This document shows positions 1 to 8,163 of a stretch of DNA of 8,163 nucleotides, in pieces (position 1 is the stretch's first letter; each line of letters begins with the position of its first letter). The position numbers were made by a program, and so were the translations under genes. Location: IMG/VR virus record IMGVR_UViG_2681813321_000020, one strand, 5' to 3'. Source of the DNA: a virus. Its lineage: Duplodnaviria > Heunggongvirae > Uroviricota > Caudoviricetes. The notes beneath the pieces are model-generated. The model ran no database searches and was not told the origin of the DNA. It saw only the letters and a program-made list of their open reading frames with translations.

Positions 1-215
1 GTAACGACTGGCAGACGCTGGAGCTGGTGTTCACCGCCGGCAGTGCCACGGTTACTCCGAAACTGAATGGAGTGGCTGGCCCGGCATTCCAGGTTATAAA
101 AGACAGTCTGACACTGGGACTGAATGCGCTGACGCTGACGGATGTTACAAAAAATGCAGCGTATGGCGTTGAGATAGAAAGTCTGATGCTGGAGATAAAT
201 GCACCGGCAGCATAA
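1..215 (+). CDS. 3' end of a prophage late-region gene (copy 1, truncated by window start); C-terminal beta-rich, lectin-like domain. Possibly the C-terminus of a NanS-p/YjhS-like prophage esterase, which is tentative.
   Basis: Open frame from window start to TAA TAA at 210-215. Identical to the C-terminus of ORF 4289..4978. Position immediately upstream of the holin matches the usual location of such genes in lambdoid prophages. Product assignment is from memory only. Confidence 0.5.
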   Translation, partial: NDWQTLELVFTAGSATVTPKLNGVAGPAFQVIKDSLTLGLNALTLTDVTKNAAYGVEIESLMLEINAPAA

Positions 216-217
216 TA

Positions 218-510
218 AAAAAAGCCAGCGACTGACCTGAAAAAGAAGACGCTGGCTAAAAGGCCTTATATGTTTGTAGAGACTTATTTTTCACAGACAG
301 CAATGATGCCTGTCAATATATTATCAATATGCGGATTGTTTCAGTTACAGATGCCTTATTAAGGAAAAAAACAGCCAGCACTGACTTTCGGTGGAGAGGT
401 GCTGGCTCAAAAGGATAGATGTACTTCACATGTTGCTTCTATATGGCAGTACATTTTCTGACAGACAGTGACGGATGTTGTCAAGATATTGTGTCATTTA
501 TAACCTGAAT
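218..510. repeat. Two diverged tandem modules of about 145 bp in the spacer between the late gene and the holin, each with a GCCAGC(G/A)...GCTGGC hairpin followed by AAAAGG and a TTTTC(A/T)GACAGACAG...TGTCAA(T/G)ATATT segment
   Basis: Module 1 hairpin: gccagcg (227-233) pairs with cgctggc (253-259). Module 2 hairpin: gccagcac (371-378) pairs with gtgctggc (396-403). Downstream segments 286-330 and 446-492 align with many matches. Read on the minus strand, each hairpin is followed by a T-run, so they look like terminators for minus-strand transcription. Confidence 0.55.
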
Positions 511-581
511 CAGGGGAGGCCGGAATGTTATCTGGCATTTTTAGCAGAGCCTGAATGCCATAATCACGGCTCCCGGCGTTG

Positions 582-620
582 GCCGTCAGTGGGTGACACT
601 GGCGGCTTTTTTGTTTTTCT
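582..620 (+). terminator. Rho-independent terminator just upstream of the holin
   Basis: 10-bp GC-rich stem 582-591 / 597-606 (one G-U wobble), 5-nt loop ggtga, then TTTTTTGTTTTTCTTT (607-620). About 40 nt upstream of the holin start. Confidence 0.6.
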
Positions 621-662
621 TTACTTTCATTTTCTGTCGGCGGTGACGGAGACATACATCAG

Positions 663-869
663 ATGGAAAAAATCACAACAGGTGTGTCATACACCACGTC
701 AGCGGTGGGGACGGGATACTGGTTACTGCAGCTGCTGGACAAAGTCTCTCCGTCCCAGTGGGTGGCAATAGGTGTGCTGGGAAGTCTGCTGTTTGGCCTG
801 CTGACGTATCTGACAAATCTTTATTTCAAGATTAAAGAAGATAAGCGTAAGGCTGCGAGAGGTGAATAA
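663..869 (+). CDS. S: Phage 21-type class II holin (pinholin S21-like), 68 aa
   Basis: Translation [68 protein letters not shown] is closely similar to the recalled S21 sequence, with two TM segments and a basic C-tail. GGAG at 648-651 precedes the ATG. Its stop overlaps the endolysin start (TAATG). Confidence 0.9.
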
Positions 870-1365
870 TGTCGCCGTCATTACGCAAGGCTGTTGCAGC
901 TGCTATTGGTGGTGGGGCTGTTGCCATAGCGTCTGTGCTCATCACTGGTCCAGGTGGTAACGATGGTCTGGAAGGTGTCAGCTACATACCATACAAAGAT
1001 ATCGTTGGCGTATGGACTGTATGTCACGGACACACCGGAAAAGACATCATGCCCGGTAAAACGTATACCGAAGCAGAATGCAAAGCCCTCCTGAATAAAG
1101 ACCTTGCCACGGTCGCCAGACAAATTAACCCGTACATCAACGTCGATATACCGGAAACAACGCGCGCGCTCTTTACTCGTTCGTTTACAACGTGGGCGCT
1201 GGCAATTTCAGAACATCGACGCTTCTTCGCAAAATAAACCAGGGCGATATCAAAAGCGCATGTGATCAGCTACGGCGCTGGACATACGCTGGCGGTAAGC
1301 AATGGAAAGGGCTGATGACTCGCCGCGAGATTGAGCGTGAAGTCTGTTTGTGGGGGCAACAATGA
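869..1365 (+). pseudogene. R: SAR endolysin (R21-like lysozyme) with a frameshift: 1-bp deletion in the GC tract near 1163-1168
   Basis: Residues 1-98 match R21 (signal-anchor-release domain [17 protein letters not shown], catalytic E-8aa-D-5aa-T motif [17 protein letters not shown]). Frame 0 then reads ALFTRSF...FFAK and stops at 1235-1237. The R21 C-terminus ([41 protein letters not shown]) is intact in the +2 frame from 1171 to TGA 1363-1365. Our acgcgcgcgctctttac versus the expected acgcgcgGcgctctttac implies loss of one G. Confidence 0.75.
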
Positions 1366-1799
1366 GCAGGGTAACCGTTATTATCTCCGCTCTGGTTATC
1401 TGCATTATCGCCTGCCTGTCATGGGCTGTTAATCTTTACCGTGATAACGCCATCGCCTACAAAGAGCAGCGCGATAAAGCCACATCCATCATCGCTGATA
1501 TGCAGAAGCGGCAACGTGATGTAGCAGAACTTGACGCCAGATACACAAAGGAGCTTGCTGATGCTAATGCGACTATCGAAAGTCTCCGTGCTGATGTTTC
1601 TGCTGGGCGTAAGCGCCTGCAAGTCTTCGCCACCTGTGCAAAGTCAACGACCGGAGCCAGCAGCATGGGCGATGGAGAAAGCCCAGGACTTACAGCAGAT
1701 GCTGAACTCAATTATTACCGTCTCCGAGGTGGAATCGACAAGATAACCGCGCAGGTTAACTACCTGCAGGAATACATCAGGACGCAGTGCTTAAAATAA
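1362..1799 (+). CDS. Rz: Rz i-spanin (inner-membrane spanin subunit), 145 aa
   Basis: ATG at 1362 overlaps the endolysin +2-frame stop (ATGA). N-terminal TM helix [20 protein letters not shown], then a coiled-coil-rich periplasmic domain. Standard S-R-Rz order. Confidence 0.88.
1561..1746 (+). CDS. Rz1: Rz1 o-spanin lipoprotein, embedded in Rz in the +1 frame, 61 aa
   Basis: AAGGAG at 1548-1553 sits 7 nt before ATG 1561. Signal peptide [20 protein letters not shown] with lipobox V-S-A-C, followed by a proline-rich mature region ([15 protein letters not shown]). Wholly embedded in Rz as in lambda. Confidence 0.75.
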
Positions 1800-1836
1800 T
1801 TTTAATTTCACTGAAATTTAACAAGTGACTTTCAGG

Positions 1837-1866
1837 AAAATGCCTCGCAGATGCGGGGCATTTTTG
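1837..1866. terminator. Bidirectional rho-independent terminator after the lysis cassette
   Basis: aaaa-tgcctcg (1841-1847), loop cagatg, cggggca (1854-1860), then ttttt. A-run upstream and T-run downstream. Lies about 40 nt after the Rz stop. Confidence 0.6.
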
Positions 1867-1925
1867 TACCGGTATTTCACCGCGCACCGCAGCGCACAAT
1901 AAACACCGAACCTGACCCTTTGGAA

Positions 1926-1954
1926 GTAAGCGTGCAGCAAGAACCGTATTGACG
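1926..1954. repeat. IS66-family terminal inverted repeat (tnpC-proximal end)
   Basis: gtaagcgtgcagcaagaaccgtattgacg compared with the reverse complement of 4351-4379, gtaagcgtcgtctcagcaccgtctggcag; the first 8 nt are identical, with scattered matches beyond. Confidence 0.5.
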
Positions 1955-1962
1955 GGGATGTG

Positions 1963-3501
1963 TTATTCAGTCGGCAGTGCTACGCGCCAGGGGAGCAGTT
2001 CGCCGACCCGGTTTATCGGCCAGTCGGCTATGACGTCAAGGACATAGCGGAGGTAGCTTTCTGGCTCCACTCCGTTCAGTTTGCACGTCCCGATCAGGCT
2101 GTACAGCAGCGCTCCCCGCTCTCCTCCATGATCCGAACCGAAGAACAGGTAGTTTTTGCGGCCCAGACTGACCATCCGCAACGCATTTTCAGCGATGTTA
2201 TTGTCCGCCTCAGCCCAGCCATCATCTGCATAGTACGTCAGCGCCGGCCACTGGTTCAGGGCGTATGCGAACGCTTTCGCCAGTTCTGAGTGTCGCGACA
2301 GGGTTTTCATCTTTTCACGCAGCCAGCTTTCCAGGGATTTCAGCAGCGGTTTCGTTTTCAACTGACGTTCGGCAAGGCGCTGCTCCGCCGTCATTCCCCT
2401 TATCTCTGCCTCGATGGCGTACAGTTCGCCGATCCGTTTCAGCGCTTCCTCCGTCAGGGCTGACGGGGTGCGAACGTGCACATCGTGGATTTTACGGCGG
2501 GCGTGAGCCCAACAGGCGGCTTCCGTTATCCGGCCATCCCGGTACAGCTCGTTGAACCCGGCGTATGCATCCGCCTGCAGTACACCACTGAACCCCGCAA
2601 GATGGGTCTGCGGATGGATGCCTTTTCTGTCCGGGCTGTAAGCGAACAACACCGCCGGCGCCAGCGTTGACCCGGCGTTACGGTCGTCACGAACGTAGGT
2701 CCATAACCGCCCGGTCTTCGTTTTCTTATTGCCTGGCAACAGCACCGGGACAGGCGTGTCATCAGCATGGAGCTTACCGTCAGTCAGCACATAGTCCTGA
2801 AGCGCTTCTTCCAGCGGTGACAGTAGCCGGCAGCATGCATCCACCCAGCCCGACAGCAGTGAACGACTCAGCTCCACGCCCTGGCGGCCGTACATTTCAG
2901 ACTGGCGGTACAGCGGGGTGTGCTCTGCATACTTTGAGATCAGCACGCGGGCCAGCAGCCCCGGTCCTGCGATACCCCGCTCGATGGGCCGTGAAGGCGC
3001 GGGGGCCTGCACGATGGCATCGCACTGAGTACAGGCATGCTTTTCACGTACAGTCCGGATAACCCGGAAGGCGCTGCGCATCAACTCCAGCTGTTCGGCG
3101 GCATCCTCACCCAGATAGCTCAGTGAGCCTCCACATTCCGGGCAGCATGATGCTGCCGGCAGCAGCCGTTTTTCATCGCGGGGGAGTGATTCGGGGAACG
3201 GTTTGCGGGTGCGGGTTTGACGCAGCGGGCGCTGCACGGCCGGGTCGTCAACCCGACCGGTAAGGGTATCACTTTCTTTCTGAAGTGCCTTCAGGTCAGC
3301 TTCCATCTGTGCGATACGACGGGAGACTTTTTCGGAGCGGCTGCCGAAGTTCATCCGGCGCAGCTTATCCAGCTGTGCCTGCAGATGGTCTATTTCGCGT
3401 TCACGCTCGTTCAGCTTTTCCAGCAGGGCACGGTTCAGCGCCTCCTGTTCGGCAAGGAGACGTTTCAGTGCATTGATATCGTCAGGAAGTGAGCTGCTCA
3501 T
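1963..3501 (-). CDS. tnpC: IS66-family transposase TnpC (512 aa)
   Basis: N-terminal leucine-zipper-like region ([36 protein letters not shown]), zinc-finger-like CCPECGG...CTQC, and a large DDE-type catalytic region. Size and position after tnpB are typical. Confidence 0.93.
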
Positions 3502-3549
3502 ACCGGGTATATTACCAGGCTCATTCAGCGTCGACCAGGATAAAGAGGC

Positions 3550-3897
3550 TTACAACATAGTCAGGGACGTAAGCAGTCTTTTAGGCTGCCGCCAGTCGAT
3601 ACCTTCCAGCAGCATCGCCAGCTGTGCCGGTGTGAGGAACACTTTGCCATCCCGGGCTGACGGCCAGGCGAAGCGGCCGCGCTCCAGCCGTTTGGTCAGC
3701 AGACACAGTCCATCGCCGGTAGACCAGAGGAGCTTTACCTGACTGCCATTACGCCCACGGAAGATAAAAACGTGACCTGACATCGGATCGTCTTTCAGCG
3801 TCGTCTGCACCTTTGCCGCCAGGCCGTTGAAGCCGTTTCTCATATCGGTGATGCCAGCGACCAGCCAGATCTTTGTCCCTGATGGTAATGGGATCAA
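3550..3897 (-). CDS. tnpB: IS66-family accessory protein TnpB (Orf2), 115 aa
   Basis: Translation MIPLPSGTKIWLVAGITDMRNGFNGLAAKVQ... matches the conserved IS66 Orf2 family. Its start overlaps the tnpA stop (ATGA). Confidence 0.88.
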   Translation of the reverse strand: MIPLPSGTKIWLVAGITDMRNGFNGLAAKVQTTLKDDPMSGHVFIFRGRNGSQVKLLWSTGDGLCLLTKRLERGRFAWPSARDGKVFLTPAQLAMLLEGIDWRQPKRLLTSLTML

Positions 3898-4298
3898 CGT
3901 TTGAGCTCCCGTATCAGCAGGTTCAGGATATTTTCGCTGATGGCACCATTCAGACGGAGTGATCCGTGCCGGAACGTCACTTCACAGCTGATATTGAGTG
4001 ATTCAGGTGTCGCAGCAGCTACAGGTTGTGACCGGGGGGAGGTTGTAGGGACAACATCTTCGGCATCAAGTGTTATCGGGAGCAGCTCAGGCACGTTGTT
4101 TTCTGTTGTTGAAGGAGGACGTAGTTTTCCTTCGCGCCAGTACTGGCGCCACTTGAACAGCAAATTATCGTTGATCCCATGCTCACGAGCGAGTTGCGCT
4201 ACGGAGAGCTCTGGTCGATGCGAGAGTTCAACCATTTTGATTTTGAACTCAACGGGATAATTAGGGCTTTTTTTACGCACTGCGGTTAATGATTTCAT
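3894..4298 (-). CDS. tnpA: IS66-family TnpA (Orf1; IS3-type HTH transposase-accessory protein), 134 aa
   Basis: HTH region ELSVAQLAREHGINDNLLFKWRQYWREG is typical of IS3/IS66 OrfA proteins. First gene inside the IS end. Confidence 0.85.
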   Translation of the reverse strand: MKSLTAVRKKSPNYPVEFKIKMVELSHRPELSVAQLAREHGINDNLLFKWRQYWREGKLRPPSTTENNVPELLPITLDAEDVVPTTSPRSQPVAAATPESLNISCEVTFRHGSLRLNGAISENILNLLIRELKR

Positions 4299-4350
4299 GG
4301 ATAGCGTCCACCATATTTGGTGTCCACTATTCTCTCAGGAATTTCAGGAT

Positions 4351-4379
4351 CTGCCAGACGGTGCTGAGACGACGCTTAC
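4351..4379. repeat. IS66-family terminal inverted repeat (tnpA-proximal end)
   Basis: Ends in ...gacgcttac, the reverse complement of the GTAAGCG terminus at 1926. Confidence 0.5.
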
Positions 4380-4978
4380 AGCTGCCGGCAGCCGGAGAGG
4401 CTGCTGCGCAGGGCTGGAGCATTAAGGATGGCGGAATTCAGTTGTCAGATGGTGTATTTAAGATCACCAAGCAGAGCAATAAAACCTGGTCCCTGACGCA
4501 TCCGGTGGATGACGCAATTACCCTGCTGACACAGGGCGGCAGACTGACCTGTAAGTTCCGCCTGTCAGGCGCACTGACCAACAATCAGTTCGGGCTGGGG
4601 ATTTATCTGTATACGGACGCTCCCGTTCCTGATGGTGTGGCGATGACGGGTACCGGTAATCCGTTCCTGATGTCGTACTTCACTCAGACCACTGACGGCA
4701 GAGTGAATCTGATGCATCACAGGAAAGCCGGAAACACGAAGCTGGGGGAGTTCGGCGATTACGGTAACGACTGGCAGACGCTGGAGCTGGTGTTCACCGC
4801 CGGCAGTGCCACGGTTACTCCGAAACTGAATGGAGTGGCTGGCCCGGCATTCCAGGTTATAAAAGACAGTCTGACACTGGGACTGAATGCGCTGACGCTG
4901 ACGGATGTTACAAAAAATGCAGCGTATGGCGTTGAGATAGAAAGTCTGATGCTGGAGATAAATGCACCGGCAGCATAA
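4380..4978 (+). pseudogene. 3' fragment of a prophage late-region gene, truncated at its 5' side by the IS66 element (same gene as 1..215)
   Basis: The frame is open from the IS boundary to TAA at 4976-4978 and encodes a beta-rich, lectin-like C-terminal domain. The ORF-track start at 4289 lies inside the IS, so the first 30 codons are IS-derived, not native. Confidence 0.6.
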
Positions 4979-4980
4979 TA

Positions 4981-5273
4981 AAAAAAGCCAGCGACTGACC
5001 TGAAAAAGAAGACGCTGGCTAAAAGGCCTTATATGTTTGTAGAGACTTATTTTTCACAGACAGCAATGATGCCTGTCAATATATTATCAATATGCGGATT
5101 GTTTCAGTTACAGATGCCTTATTAAGGAAAAAAACAGCCAGCACTGACTTTCGGTGGAGAGGTGCTGGCTCAAAAGGATAGATGTACTTCACATGTTGCT
5201 TCTATATGGCAGTACATTTTCTGACAGACAGTGACGGATGTTGTCAAGATATTGTGTCATTTATAACCTGAAT
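4981..5273. repeat. Copy 2 of the two tandem ~145-bp hairpin modules
   Basis: Same sequence as 218..510. Confidence 0.55.
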
Positions 5274-5344
5274 CAGGGGAGGCCGGAATGTTATCTGGCA
5301 TTTTTAGCAGAGCCTGAATGCCATAATCACGGCTCCCGGCGTTG

Positions 5345-5383
5345 GCCGTCAGTGGGTGACACTGGCGGCTTTTTTGTTTTTCT
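5345..5383 (+). terminator. Rho-independent terminator upstream of the holin (copy 2)
   Basis: Same sequence as 582..620. Confidence 0.6.
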
Positions 5384-5425
5384 TTACTTTCATTTTCTGT
5401 CGGCGGTGACGGAGACATACATCAG

Positions 5426-5632
5426 ATGGAAAAAATCACAACAGGTGTGTCATACACCACGTCAGCGGTGGGGACGGGATACTGGTTACTGCAGCTGCTG
5501 GACAAAGTCTCTCCGTCCCAGTGGGTGGCAATAGGTGTGCTGGGAAGTCTGCTGTTTGGCCTGCTGACGTATCTGACAAATCTTTATTTCAAGATTAAAG
5601 AAGATAAGCGTAAGGCTGCGAGAGGTGAATAA
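5426..5632 (+). CDS. S: Phage 21-type pinholin, 68 aa (copy 2)
   Basis: Translation identical to 663..869. Confidence 0.9.
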
Positions 5633-6128
5633 TGTCGCCGTCATTACGCAAGGCTGTTGCAGCTGCTATTGGTGGTGGGGCTGTTGCCATAGCGTCTGTG
5701 CTCATCACTGGTCCAGGTGGTAACGATGGTCTGGAAGGTGTCAGCTACATACCATACAAAGATATCGTTGGCGTATGGACTGTATGTCACGGACACACCG
5801 GAAAAGACATCATGCCCGGTAAAACGTATACCGAAGCAGAATGCAAAGCCCTCCTGAATAAAGACCTTGCCACGGTCGCCAGACAAATTAACCCGTACAT
5901 CAACGTCGATATACCGGAAACAACGCGCGCGCTCTTTACTCGTTCGTTTACAACGTGGGCGCTGGCAATTTCAGAACATCGACGCTTCTTCGCAAAATAA
6001 ACCAGGGCGATATCAAAAGCGCATGTGATCAGCTACGGCGCTGGACATACGCTGGCGGTAAGCAATGGAAAGGGCTGATGACTCGCCGCGAGATTGAGCG
6101 TGAAGTCTGTTTGTGGGGGCAACAATGA
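5632..6128 (+). pseudogene. R: SAR endolysin (R21-like) with the same 1-bp deletion frameshift (copy 2)
   Basis: The frame-0 product is identical to copy 1 (122 aa) and the C-terminal lobe is likewise in the +2 frame. The frameshift site is near 5926-5931. Confidence 0.75.
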
Positions 6129-6562
6129 GCAGGGTAACCGTTATTATCTCCGCTCTGGTTATCTGCATTATCGCCTGCCTGTCATGGGCTGTTAATCTTT
6201 ACCGTGATAACGCCATCGCCTACAAAGAGCAGCGCGATAAAGCCACATCCATCATCGCTGATATGCAGAAGCGGCAACGTGATGTAGCAGAACTTGACGC
6301 CAGATACACAAAGGAGCTTGCTGATGCTAATGCGACTATCGAAAGTCTCCGTGCTGATGTTTCTGCTGGGCGTAAGCGCCTGCAAGTCTTCGCCACCTGT
6401 GCAAAGTCAACGACCGGAGCCAGCAGCATGGGCGATGGAGAAAGCCCAGGACTTACAGCAGATGCTGAACTCAATTATTACCGTCTCCGAGGTGGAATCG
6501 ACAAGATAACCGCGCAGGTTAACTACCTGCAGGAATACATCAGGACGCAGTGCTTAAAATAA
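6125..6562 (+). CDS. Rz: Rz i-spanin (copy 2)
   Basis: Translation identical to 1362..1799. Confidence 0.88.
6324..6509 (+). CDS. Rz1: Rz1 o-spanin lipoprotein (copy 2)
   Basis: Translation identical to 1561..1746. Confidence 0.75.
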
Positions 6563-6599
6563 TTTTAATTTCACTGAAATTTAACAAGTGACTTTCAGG

Positions 6600-6629
6600 A
6601 AAATGCCTCGCAGATGCGGGGCATTTTTG
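6600..6629. terminator. Bidirectional terminator after Rz (copy 2)
   Basis: Same sequence as 1837..1866. Confidence 0.6.
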
Positions 6630-6780
6630 TACCGGTATTTCACCGCGCACCGCAGCGCACAATAAACACCGAACCTGACCCTTTGGAATGGGCCTTTGAG
6701 GATACCAGTTAGTGCTGGCGAGCCTCGGTGGGCTGGTTTCCTATGCGGCAAAGGTTCATTTCAAAGAAGCAGGCAACGCC

Positions 6781-7329
6781 ATGAATGAATTAATTGCGAA
6801 TCATGACTTCGACTTTCGCCAGTTAGTTACCGCAGCAGAAGGTCAACCGGTAACTGACACCTTCCAGATTGCCAGGGCATTTGGTAAACGCCATCAGCAT
6901 GTGATTAGGGCTATTAAATGTTTGAGATGTTCTGAGGAATTCTCGACAACCCATTTTTGGGCCGTCGAGAAAATCAATGACTTAGGTATTTTTGACAAGA
7001 AACAGATTTACTACCGCATGGACTTTAGTGGCTTCGTTATGCTGGTTATGGGATTTAACGGGGCAAAAGCCGATGCTGTTAAAGAAGCCTATATCAATGC
7101 GTTTAACTGGATGTCAGCAGAACTCCGTAAGTACAGCGAAAGTTATGAAGCAGAACGTAACGCCGTAATGCTGGAGTACATGAAAGAGAAGGATGTCGCC
7201 AGCATGTCAGGCCGTCTGCTCAATCGCTGGGGGAGAACGAAAAAACCTCAATTGCTTGCAAAGCTGGAACGTCTGGAGAGACAGGGACAGTTTTTATTAC
7301 CGGGATTCGATAAAGGTATTCAAGCCTGA
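6781..7329 (+). CDS. Phage regulatory protein, Rha family (antirepressor-like), about 182 aa
   Basis: Motif VTDTFQIARAFGKRHQHVIRAIK plus ...FSGFVMLVMGFNGAKADAVKEAYINAFNWM resemble the conserved core of the Phage_pRha family as I recall it. ATG at 6781 chosen over the upstream GTG at 6712 because the family usually starts close to the FGKRH motif; the start is uncertain. Confidence 0.62.
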   Translation: MNELIANHDFDFRQLVTAAEGQPVTDTFQIARAFGKRHQHVIRAIKCLRCSEEFSTTHFWAVEKINDLGIFDKKQIYYRMDFSGFVMLVMGFNGAKADAVKEAYINAFNWMSAELRKYSESYEAERNAVMLEYMKEKDVASMSGRLLNRWGRTKKPQLLAKLERLERQGQFLLPGFDKGIQA

Positions 7330-7516
7330 CACATTATGCGCTGTATCGTCGCCGTATTCCCGCATTAACCATGACCGTAGCCCGACGGGGAATTCCTTCT
7401 GCGTGAGTGTGCGGGAATAATCAAAAACGATGCACACCGGGTTTTACTGTGCTGACAGACGCAGGGTTACCCTCATAGTCGCTTTTCCGGTGCGATGGTG
7501 GAAGAAACCGGGATGT

Positions 7517-7711
7517 TCATCCATCATCACTTTGGATTGATGTATATGCTCTCTTTTCTGACGTTAGTCTCCGACGGCAGGCTTCAATGACCCAGGCTGA
7601 GAAATTCCCAGACCCTTTTTGCTCAAGAGCGATGTTAATTTGTTCAATCATTTGGTTAGGAAAGCGGATGTTGCGGGTTGTTTTTCTGCGGGTTCTGTTC
7701 TTCGTTGACAT
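7517..7711 (-). CDS. ylcI: Small prophage protein, YlcI-like (DUF3950-type), 64 aa
   Basis: Translation MSTKNRTRRKTTRNIRFPNQMIEQINIALEQKGSGNFSAWVIEACRRRL... closely resembles my recollection of DLP12 YlcI, which also lies just upstream of cos and the terminase gene. The Shine-Dalgarno is weak. Confidence 0.5.
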   Translation of the reverse strand: MSTKNRTRRKTTRNIRFPNQMIEQINIALEQKGSGNFSAWVIEACRRRLTSEKRAYTSIQSDDG

Positions 7712-7849
7712 GAGGTTGCCCCGTATTCAGTGTCGCTGATTTGTATTGTCTGAAGTTGTTTTTACGTTAAGTTGATGCAGATCAATTAATACGATACCTG
7801 CGTCATAATTAATTATTTGACGTGGTTTGATGGCGTAGATGCACGTTGT

Positions 7850-7910
7850 GATATGTAGATGATAATTATTATCATTTTGCGGGTCCTTTCCGGCGATCCG
7901 ACAGGTTACG
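7850..7910. other. cosQ-like region and right-end sequence of a lambda-type genome
   Basis: gatatgtagatgataattattatcattttgcgggtcctttccggcgatccgacaggttacg closely resembles the last bases of the lambda genome, which end in ...CCGACAGGTTACG. Confidence 0.7.
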
Positions 7911-7922
7911 GGGCGGCGACCT
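7911..7922. other. cosN: cosN: 12-nt cohesive-end sequence GGGCGGCGACCT, identical to lambda
   Basis: 7911-7955 (gggcggcgacctcgcgggttttcgctatttatgaaaattttccgg) matches the first 45 nt of the lambda genome as recalled. Divergence begins at 7956. Confidence 0.85.
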
Positions 7923-7959
7923 CGCGGGTTTTCGCTATTTATGAAAATTTTCCGGGATC

Positions 7960-8067
7960 CATGTCCGGTTTCTCTGCAAGTTAACTATATGAAAAATATA
8001 AAAACAGGCTGTCCGTGAACCGGACATGTGCAAAAAACGGACATGTAAACCGGACATGACCGGTTTT
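7960..8067. repeat. cosB: cosB-like terminase-binding region: one inverted copy (7960-7970) and three direct copies (8018-8028, 8037-8045, 8048-8058) of a (A)ACCGGACATG motif flanking an AT-rich segment
   Basis: The repeats are visible directly. The architecture (an inverted site next to cosN, an AT-rich putative bend site, then further sites, about 190 nt before the terminase start) parallels lambda cosB R3-I1-R2-R1, but the repeat sequence differs from the lambda R sites. Confidence 0.6.
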
Positions 8068-8105
8068 GTTGTGATTGTGAGGTGAGAGTTTTTGCGAGGT
8101 GAGGA

Positions 8106-8163
8106 GTGGCTACGCAGACTGAAGTTGCCAGGCATTTAAGTCTGACCGATCGCCAGCTTCGCA
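8106..8163 (+). CDS. Probable 5' end of the terminase small-subunit gene (partial, runs off the window)
   Basis: GTG at 8106 preceded by GAGGTG; translation (M)ATQTEVARHLSLTDRQLR looks HTH-like. The position about 195 nt downstream of cosN matches where Nu1 starts in lambda. Only 19 codons are visible. Confidence 0.3.
   Translation, partial: MATQTEVARHLSLTDRQLR

Follow-up and report, generated by a model that had tools for sequence, protein, structure and literature searches.

Gene order at the lysis locus

The window, that is the whole stretch of 8,163 bases analysed here, is the draft Escherichia coli record CYBF01000118.1 (assembly GCA_001285025.1). It carries a lysis cassette of a lambdoid prophage in two copies, with a complete insertion sequence (IS) between them. 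The features are as follows.

1-1925, + strand: repeat copy 1, with the 3' end of an esterase gene (SASA/DUF6645), a spacer, holin, endolysin and Rz/Rz1
663-869, + strand: phage 21-type class II holin (pinholin family) of 68 aa, copy 1 (PF04971, E = 1.2e-32)
869-1237, + strand: truncated SAR endolysin open reading frame of 122 aa, copy 1 (PF00959; translation of the reading frame)
1163-1168, + strand: frameshift site, copy 1 (pairwise and multiple alignments to the intact alleles L001 and L002; codon table)
1168-1365, + strand: stranded C-terminal part of the endolysin, A101-Q165 and stop, in the -1 frame (PF00959 positions 78-125)
1192-1365, + strand: 57-aa open reading frame with a GTG start, inside the stranded C-terminal part
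1362-1799, + strand: Rz i-spanin gene, 145 aa, copy 1 (PF03245, E = 2.3e-34)
1561-1746, + strand: Rz1 o-spanin, 61 aa, embedded in Rz in the +1 frame (PF06085 call on L007, mapped to the window)
1926-4379, - strand: complete ISEc22-like element of the IS66 family, 2454 bp
4298-3894, 3897-3550 and 3501-1963, - strand: the IS genes tnpA, tnpB and tnpC (Pfam calls)
4380, no strand: scaffold gap, an N in CYBF01000118.1 (comparison of window and record)
4381-4978, + strand: 3' portion of a SASA/DUF6645 carbohydrate esterase gene, where the second assembled piece starts
4764-6688, + strand: repeat copy 2, 100% identical to 1-1925 and running uninterrupted into a Rha gene
5632-6000, + strand: truncated endolysin open reading frame, copy 2 (frameshift site at 5926-5931)

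The first base of repeat copy 1 is exactly the end of the contig, and the esterase 3' piece that precedes copy 2 is longer than that preceding copy 1. The Rz1 lipobox ends at the Cys of ...LLGVSAC. Downstream of copy 2 are found, in order, a gene for a Rha-family regulator, a YlcI/DUF3950 gene, a lambda-type cos site and the start of a Nu1-like terminase gene. The cosN sequence and the start of cosB, within 7911-8060 (GGGCGGCGACCTCGCGGGTTTTCGCTATTTATGAAAATTTTCCGG), are identical to those of lambda. Three copies of CCGGACATG/CATGTCCGG are present at 7960, 8020 and 8050, between cos and the Nu1-like gene; these may be binding sites of the terminase small subunit, different from those of lambda.

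The esterase and holin genes are separated by a non-coding spacer of 450 bp (216-662 and 4979-5425) that displays several hairpins. One of these, at 581-607, forms a strong stem that resembles a terminator and has a T run after it, and two similar AAAAAA(A)GCCAGC...GCTGGCT elements are also present. No Rfam family is matched at gathering thresholds anywhere in the window, spacer included.

The holin reading frame has a single ATG start, giving 68 aa, and an ATA stands three codons before it, where phage 21 has its antiholin start (654-665). Some annotations of the same DNA in other records call a 71-aa holin product. The dual-start holin/antiholin arrangement may have been lost, or a rare start may be used.

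Reading frames of the endolysin gene and consequence for lysis

One G is missing at 1165^1166 in the gene for an R21/RrrD-type SAR endolysin, of the GH24 T4-lysozyme-like muramidases, and likewise at 5928/5929 in copy 2. Intact alleles read ACG CGC GGC GCT at the site. In the window, codon R99 is CGC (1163-1165) and the next codon is GCG instead of the GGC of G100, one G of the GG pair having been lost. Three-frame translation of 869-1365 gives, in the frame that opens at 869, 99 native residues (M1-R99) and 23 aberrant ones before the stop codon at 1235-1237. The remaining native sequence, 65 residues (A101-Q165) that end in ...CLWGQQ, is in the -1 frame from 1168 and has its TGA at 1363-1365. 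The first-pass annotation had recognized this split between two frames, with counts of 98 and 63 residues that are here corrected to 99 and 65.

When a G is inserted after 1165, a 165-aa protein is restored. The alignment to R21 and RrrD that had been suggested for this gene was run, and the restored protein aligns end to end, over 165/165 residues, with PDB 4zpu (RrrD; E = 3.5e-107) and with PDB 3hde (phage 21 R; E = 2.6e-106). At the DNA level, the closest complete genome, FDAARGOS_1059, shows zero mismatches to window 1-1925 and a single gap, the missing G. At the domain level, the 125 positions of PF00959 are covered from 3 to 70 by the 122-aa reading frame, from 78 to 125 by the 57-aa downstream reading frame, and from 3 to 125 by the restored protein; the whole catalytic fold is therefore not found in the 122-aa frame. 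The gap, the frame translations and the divided domain bear out the first-pass proposal of a one-base deletion in an R21-type SAR endolysin, with a 122-aa product that has no C-terminal lobe.

Other signatures of the family are retained. The E-X8-D-X5-T triad is present as E35 (971-973), D44 (998-1000) and T50 (1016-1018), in what we take to be the numbering of the R21 triad. This is the catalytic motif of such endolysins (PMC9239132). A weakly hydrophobic, Gly/Ala-rich SAR segment is recognizable by sequence at the N-terminus, residues ~6-27 differing from R21/RrrD at one position. The neighbours also fit, in that the PF04971 holin ends at the endolysin start and Rz (PF03245), with Rz1, follows.

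The frameshift had been placed at an alternating GC tract. The placement is correct, but the perfect tract CGCGCGCGC is a product of the deletion and not its cause, since the intact sequence is CGC GGC GCT with a GG pair and there was no pre-existing repeat. Correction of a quasi-palindrome (GCGC-G-GCGC to GCGCGCGC) is another conceivable mutational mechanism; it is indistinguishable from simple loss of one G of a GG pair and is not pressed.

A frame rescue would have to occur where both frames are open, from the last upstream -1-frame stop (1126) to the stop at 1237. This region has no X XXY YYZ slippery heptamer in the zero frame, and the endolysin gene as a whole is free of A or T runs of five or more. 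A site for programmed -1 ribosomal frameshifting is accordingly not found. No Shine-Dalgarno-like sequence was noticed upstream of the 57-aa GTG reading frame when the sequence was read by eye.

The truncated product retains the N-terminal SAR domain and all three catalytic residues. The C-terminal 66 residues are lost from G100 on, that is, from the invariant GALYSFxYNVG block; an alignment of 22 homologues has 37 invariant positions in this part of the protein, the first of them G100. The lost part forms the C-terminal half of the T4-lysozyme-like fold. With these residues gone, the 122-aa product is most likely an inactive muramidase, as judged from the alignment. Structure prediction of a full-length homologue from the 22-sequence alignment gave a mean pLDDT of 49 and a pTM of 0.42, and the solved structures 3hde and 4zpu were used instead.

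SAR endolysins are exported by the Sec system, held in the membrane and activated once the pinholin collapses the proton-motive force; the pinholes are too small for a cytoplasmic endolysin (PMC6116005). The pinholin of this prophage would depolarize the membrane and release no cytoplasmic endolysin, so that the host would be killed but not lysed. Lysis by this prophage should therefore fail unless a second prophage in the same cell contributes a SAR endolysin of its own. The lysis defect that the first-pass annotation expected is thus reasonable. There may be a second effect on the cassette. The stop codon of the native endolysin frame shares bases with the start codon of Rz (ATGA at 1362-1365), and the premature stop at 1237 breaks this overlap and uncouples Rz from endolysin translation; the loss of coupling may lower spanin translation.

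The remainder of the prophage looks intact. On the sister contig L003 (12 kb), the genes for terminase, portal, protease, decoration and capsid proteins, and those that follow, are full length. For prophage induction in enteropathogenic E. coli (EPEC), the deletion predicts a lambda-like prophage that is lysis-defective and otherwise complete, whose virions would remain trapped unless another prophage contributes its SAR endolysin.

The insertion sequence and the second copy of the cassette

The two copies, 1-1925 and 4764-6688, do not differ at a single base, and the first-pass annotation was right that both carry the same lesion. The origin of the second copy is a separate matter. The window differs from the deposited record solely at position 4380, where the record has an N and the window a placeholder 'a'; the replacement of the N by a base concealed a scaffold join. 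Immediately before the N, the IS ends (...GACGACGCTTAC, 4379); immediately after it comes GCTGCCGG..., a sequence from the middle of the esterase gene. Thus, the record is a scaffold of two pieces, 1-4379 (repeat and IS) and 4381-8163. The repeat and a multicopy IS make up the whole of piece 1. Piece 2 begins in an esterase stretch that has five SNPs within 50 bp in relatives, and such a SNP-dense stretch is a typical break point of an assembly graph. Relatives have no esterase variant at the position equivalent to 4764 that would account for piece 1 beginning there. Four Ns are found in the esterase gene of L008 (CYAG01000083.1), at window-equivalent 4673-4676; another CY.. record therefore also keeps scaffold gaps.

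The flanks of the IS in the window are CTTTGGAA on the left and (N)GCTGCCGG on the right, and these do not match. The 8-bp target site duplication of a simple IS66-family insertion is thus missing in the window. The same IS in L001 (strain B1_2, 13198-15651) has an 8-bp target site duplication, GAATATAT, on both sides, and splits the portal gene there. Neither IS junction is present in 5,426 complete E. coli genomes. The left junction, from downstream of Rz into the IS, recurs in an independent assembly, L011 (JHSP01000165.1), which matches window 1-2025 at 100% and has an uninterrupted esterase gene, the frameshifted cassette and 100 bp of the IS. The left junction is genuine.

These observations suggest how the record may have been formed. 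The IS would have entered one copy of the cassette just past the Rz gene, with a true right flank of CTTTGGAA followed by TGGGCC...; this sequence is found at 6681 onward, inside piece 2. A scaffolder would then have joined the two pieces with a negative gap and written one N. Scaffolders such as SSPACE do write a single N for a negative gap.

The junction from Rz into the IS and the uninterrupted junction from Rz into Rha were both assembled. The isolate therefore probably carries the cassette twice, or else there is an IS-insertion polymorphism or mixed population. Single genomes with two Rha and lysis modules are common. The partner junction, from the right end of the IS into Rha, was approached by looking up Rha-encoding contigs, and the matches are all long finished genomes.

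Alternatively, the duplication is real: the IS66-family element would mark the joint of a tandem or recombinational duplication that formed after the deletion, and both copies would be mutated. That the reads held at least two versions of the point downstream of Rz is in keeping with this, as is a second record reported with a similar contig, and IS-bounded rearrangements without target site duplications are well known. The right end of the IS, however, is linked to the second copy by the N alone, piece 1 holds nothing besides the repeat and a multicopy IS, the junctions occur in 0 of 5,426 complete genomes, and a simple insertion with target site duplication CTTTGGAA would place the right flank at 6681 onward, inside piece 2, and so produce a negative gap. 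We regard a real duplication as unlikely. The first-pass annotation had offered two explanations of the shared lesion. The assembly alternative is favoured by the N, the missing target site duplication and the absence of the junctions from complete genomes; that the duplication postdates the mutation does not follow.

The copies are either the same collapsed sequence or true exact repeats, and therefore the shared lesion is not independent evidence and does not tell which event came first. Nor does it prove a mutation in both genomic copies, and the allele state of each genomic copy in this isolate is that of an assembly consensus. This raises the question of whether only one of two cassettes is frameshifted, the consensus having imposed one allele on both while an intact endolysin remains. 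De Bruijn assemblers collapse near-identical repeats and pop single-base bubbles, and two such modules in a genome are, as noted, common. Against this, the consensus is the deletion in 10 of 10 related assemblies, and in sister strains both of the flanking esterase-variant backgrounds carry the deletion. A single mutant copy is accordingly improbable.

The case carries a lesson of method, namely that the same mutation seen twice in an exact repeat of a draft assembly can come from scaffolding. The biological weight of the deletion allele is small, and its value is chiefly methodological.

Spread and history of the allele, and known systems

In the protein collection, 13 contigs from several independent projects encode exactly this 122-aa product, which is annotated there as 'lysozyme [Escherichia coli E128010]' or 'phage lysozome'. 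The accession series are ADUO, JICA, JHRP/JHSP, CY.., JBNDCV and CDWKEG, with deposits spread over about 15 years. Ten loci of the 13 contigs were fetched, JHRP01, JHSP01, four CY.. records and two recent assemblies among them, and all ten are without the same G. ADUO01 is taken to be E128010 by match to the protein name; this EPEC reference strain derives from infant diarrhoea in Bangladesh. JICA01 is S6685, a Kenyan O114 isolate of the EPEC2 lineage, sequenced on the Illumina platform and assembled with Velvet at IGS (PMC4056304).

The deletion allele is found in 0 of 5,426 complete E. coli genomes, and in 0 of the 3,787 that have the gene. The best match among these 3,787 is 99.8% identical, the difference being one gap. 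In an exact-pattern scan, the mutant 42-mer is absent from GTDB species representatives, IMG/VR and JGI metagenomes, and at least 120 IMG/VR contigs match the intact 43-mer. At least 999 contigs encode the exact intact protein. The genomic context of the allele is known from short contigs, and complete or long-read genomes carry none. The allele is limited to a small group of draft E. coli genomes, both nameable ones being EPEC, and is presumably inherited.

Among the 10 loci, the deletion is found on four haplotypes, which differ at 782, 818, 1255 and 1571. The variant 1571A, located in Rz, is seen only with the deletion: it is present at 4 of the 10 deletion loci and at none of ~120 intact IMG/VR loci. 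This restriction signifies that the deletion allele has a history. The four-gamete test fails among the deletion haplotypes, sites 782 and 1255 showing all four combinations, which suggests either that prophages recombined or that the deletion arose more than once. The data fit a single origin followed by recombination as well as recurrent deletion at the site.

We consider it likely that the missing G is a real, heritable one-base deletion in the SAR endolysin gene of a lambdoid prophage, and that the duplicate consists of scaffold-joined pieces. The allele is probably an ordinary lineage-restricted prophage pseudogene and probably lysis-null. The first-pass annotation had held that natural records with a 122-aa end would argue against pseudogenization. 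Such records exist, and they refute a sequencing error; pseudogenization stands nonetheless, because the 13 contigs are close relatives of one rare allele, as against at least 999 intact contigs.

Perhaps the deletion was favoured by the host as a 'taming' mutation that blocks lysis, and has been kept or spread by gene conversion between co-resident prophages of the EPEC lineage. The four haplotypes, the failed four-gamete test, the absence of secondary lesions and the full-length structural genes on L003 are all compatible with this, but we give it little credence.

That the missing G is an error of sequencing or assembly, the endolysin being intact in the real genome, is very improbable. The window is a short-read draft scaffold that contains an N, the site is GC-rich, and finished genomes do not have the allele. 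An error would, however, have to account for an identical deletion on 13 contigs of unrelated accession series over about 15 years, and for its presence on four haplotypes, one with a private linked SNP. Nor is this a systematic error site, as it is intact on the at least 999 contigs with the exact protein and the at least 120 IMG/VR contigs. Bypass or use of the frameshift, by programmed -1 frameshifting, a reversible-slippage lysis switch or a two-piece lysozyme made of the 122-aa and 57-aa products, is hardly credible: the downstream frame is still open, without further lesions, and the allele persists in several strains, but the rescue region has no slippery heptamer or homopolymer, the 57-aa frame has a GTG start with no Shine-Dalgarno-like sequence noticed before it, the change from GG to G is not a repeat-unit slip of a CG tract, and a young allele or gene conversion from co-resident prophages explains the absence of further decay equally well.

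Among known systems, the closest are the endolysins R21 and DLP12 RrrD (PDB 3hde, 3hdf and 4zpu). The restored protein aligns with these over 165 residues with a handful of substitutions (E about 1e-106) and shares with them the Gly/Ala-rich SAR segment, E35/D44/T50 and the gene order of PF04971 pinholin, endolysin and Rz/Rz1. R21 and RrrD are intact and enzymatically characterized, whereas the allele in the window is broken after R99 and gives 122 aa. The inducible Stx-converting phages 1717, 2851 and Stx2a_F349 have a holin-endolysin-Rz block of 99.3% DNA identity in the same upstream esterase context. Unlike the window, they have the additional G, with 1138 as against 1137 bases aligned, and they are deposited as phage genomes; no stx gene is visible within the window.

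The IS resembles ISEc22/ISEc8-type elements of the IS66 family in its tnpA-tnpB-tnpC order and GTAAGCG... terminal repeats, and is 99.96% identical to the annotated ISEc22 in L001. It differs from that copy, which has an 8-bp target site duplication, in that its flanks in the window are unrelated and its right junction is an N.

Loss of this endolysin has also come about in other ways. The alleles P0002, P0009 and P0014 have independent upstream 1-bp deletions that lead into the same out-of-frame tail and stop, with 122-aa products; each is a singleton found on one contig, in contrast to the 13 contigs of the allele described here. In O145:H28 genomes (L139 and L141, about 600-2400), the endolysin gene is split or replaced by an IS3-family element, an independent second way in which the endolysin has been lost. 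Frameshifted lysis genes are a routine and already-known form of prophage decay, to which the present allele, already public and annotated as a short lysozyme, belongs.
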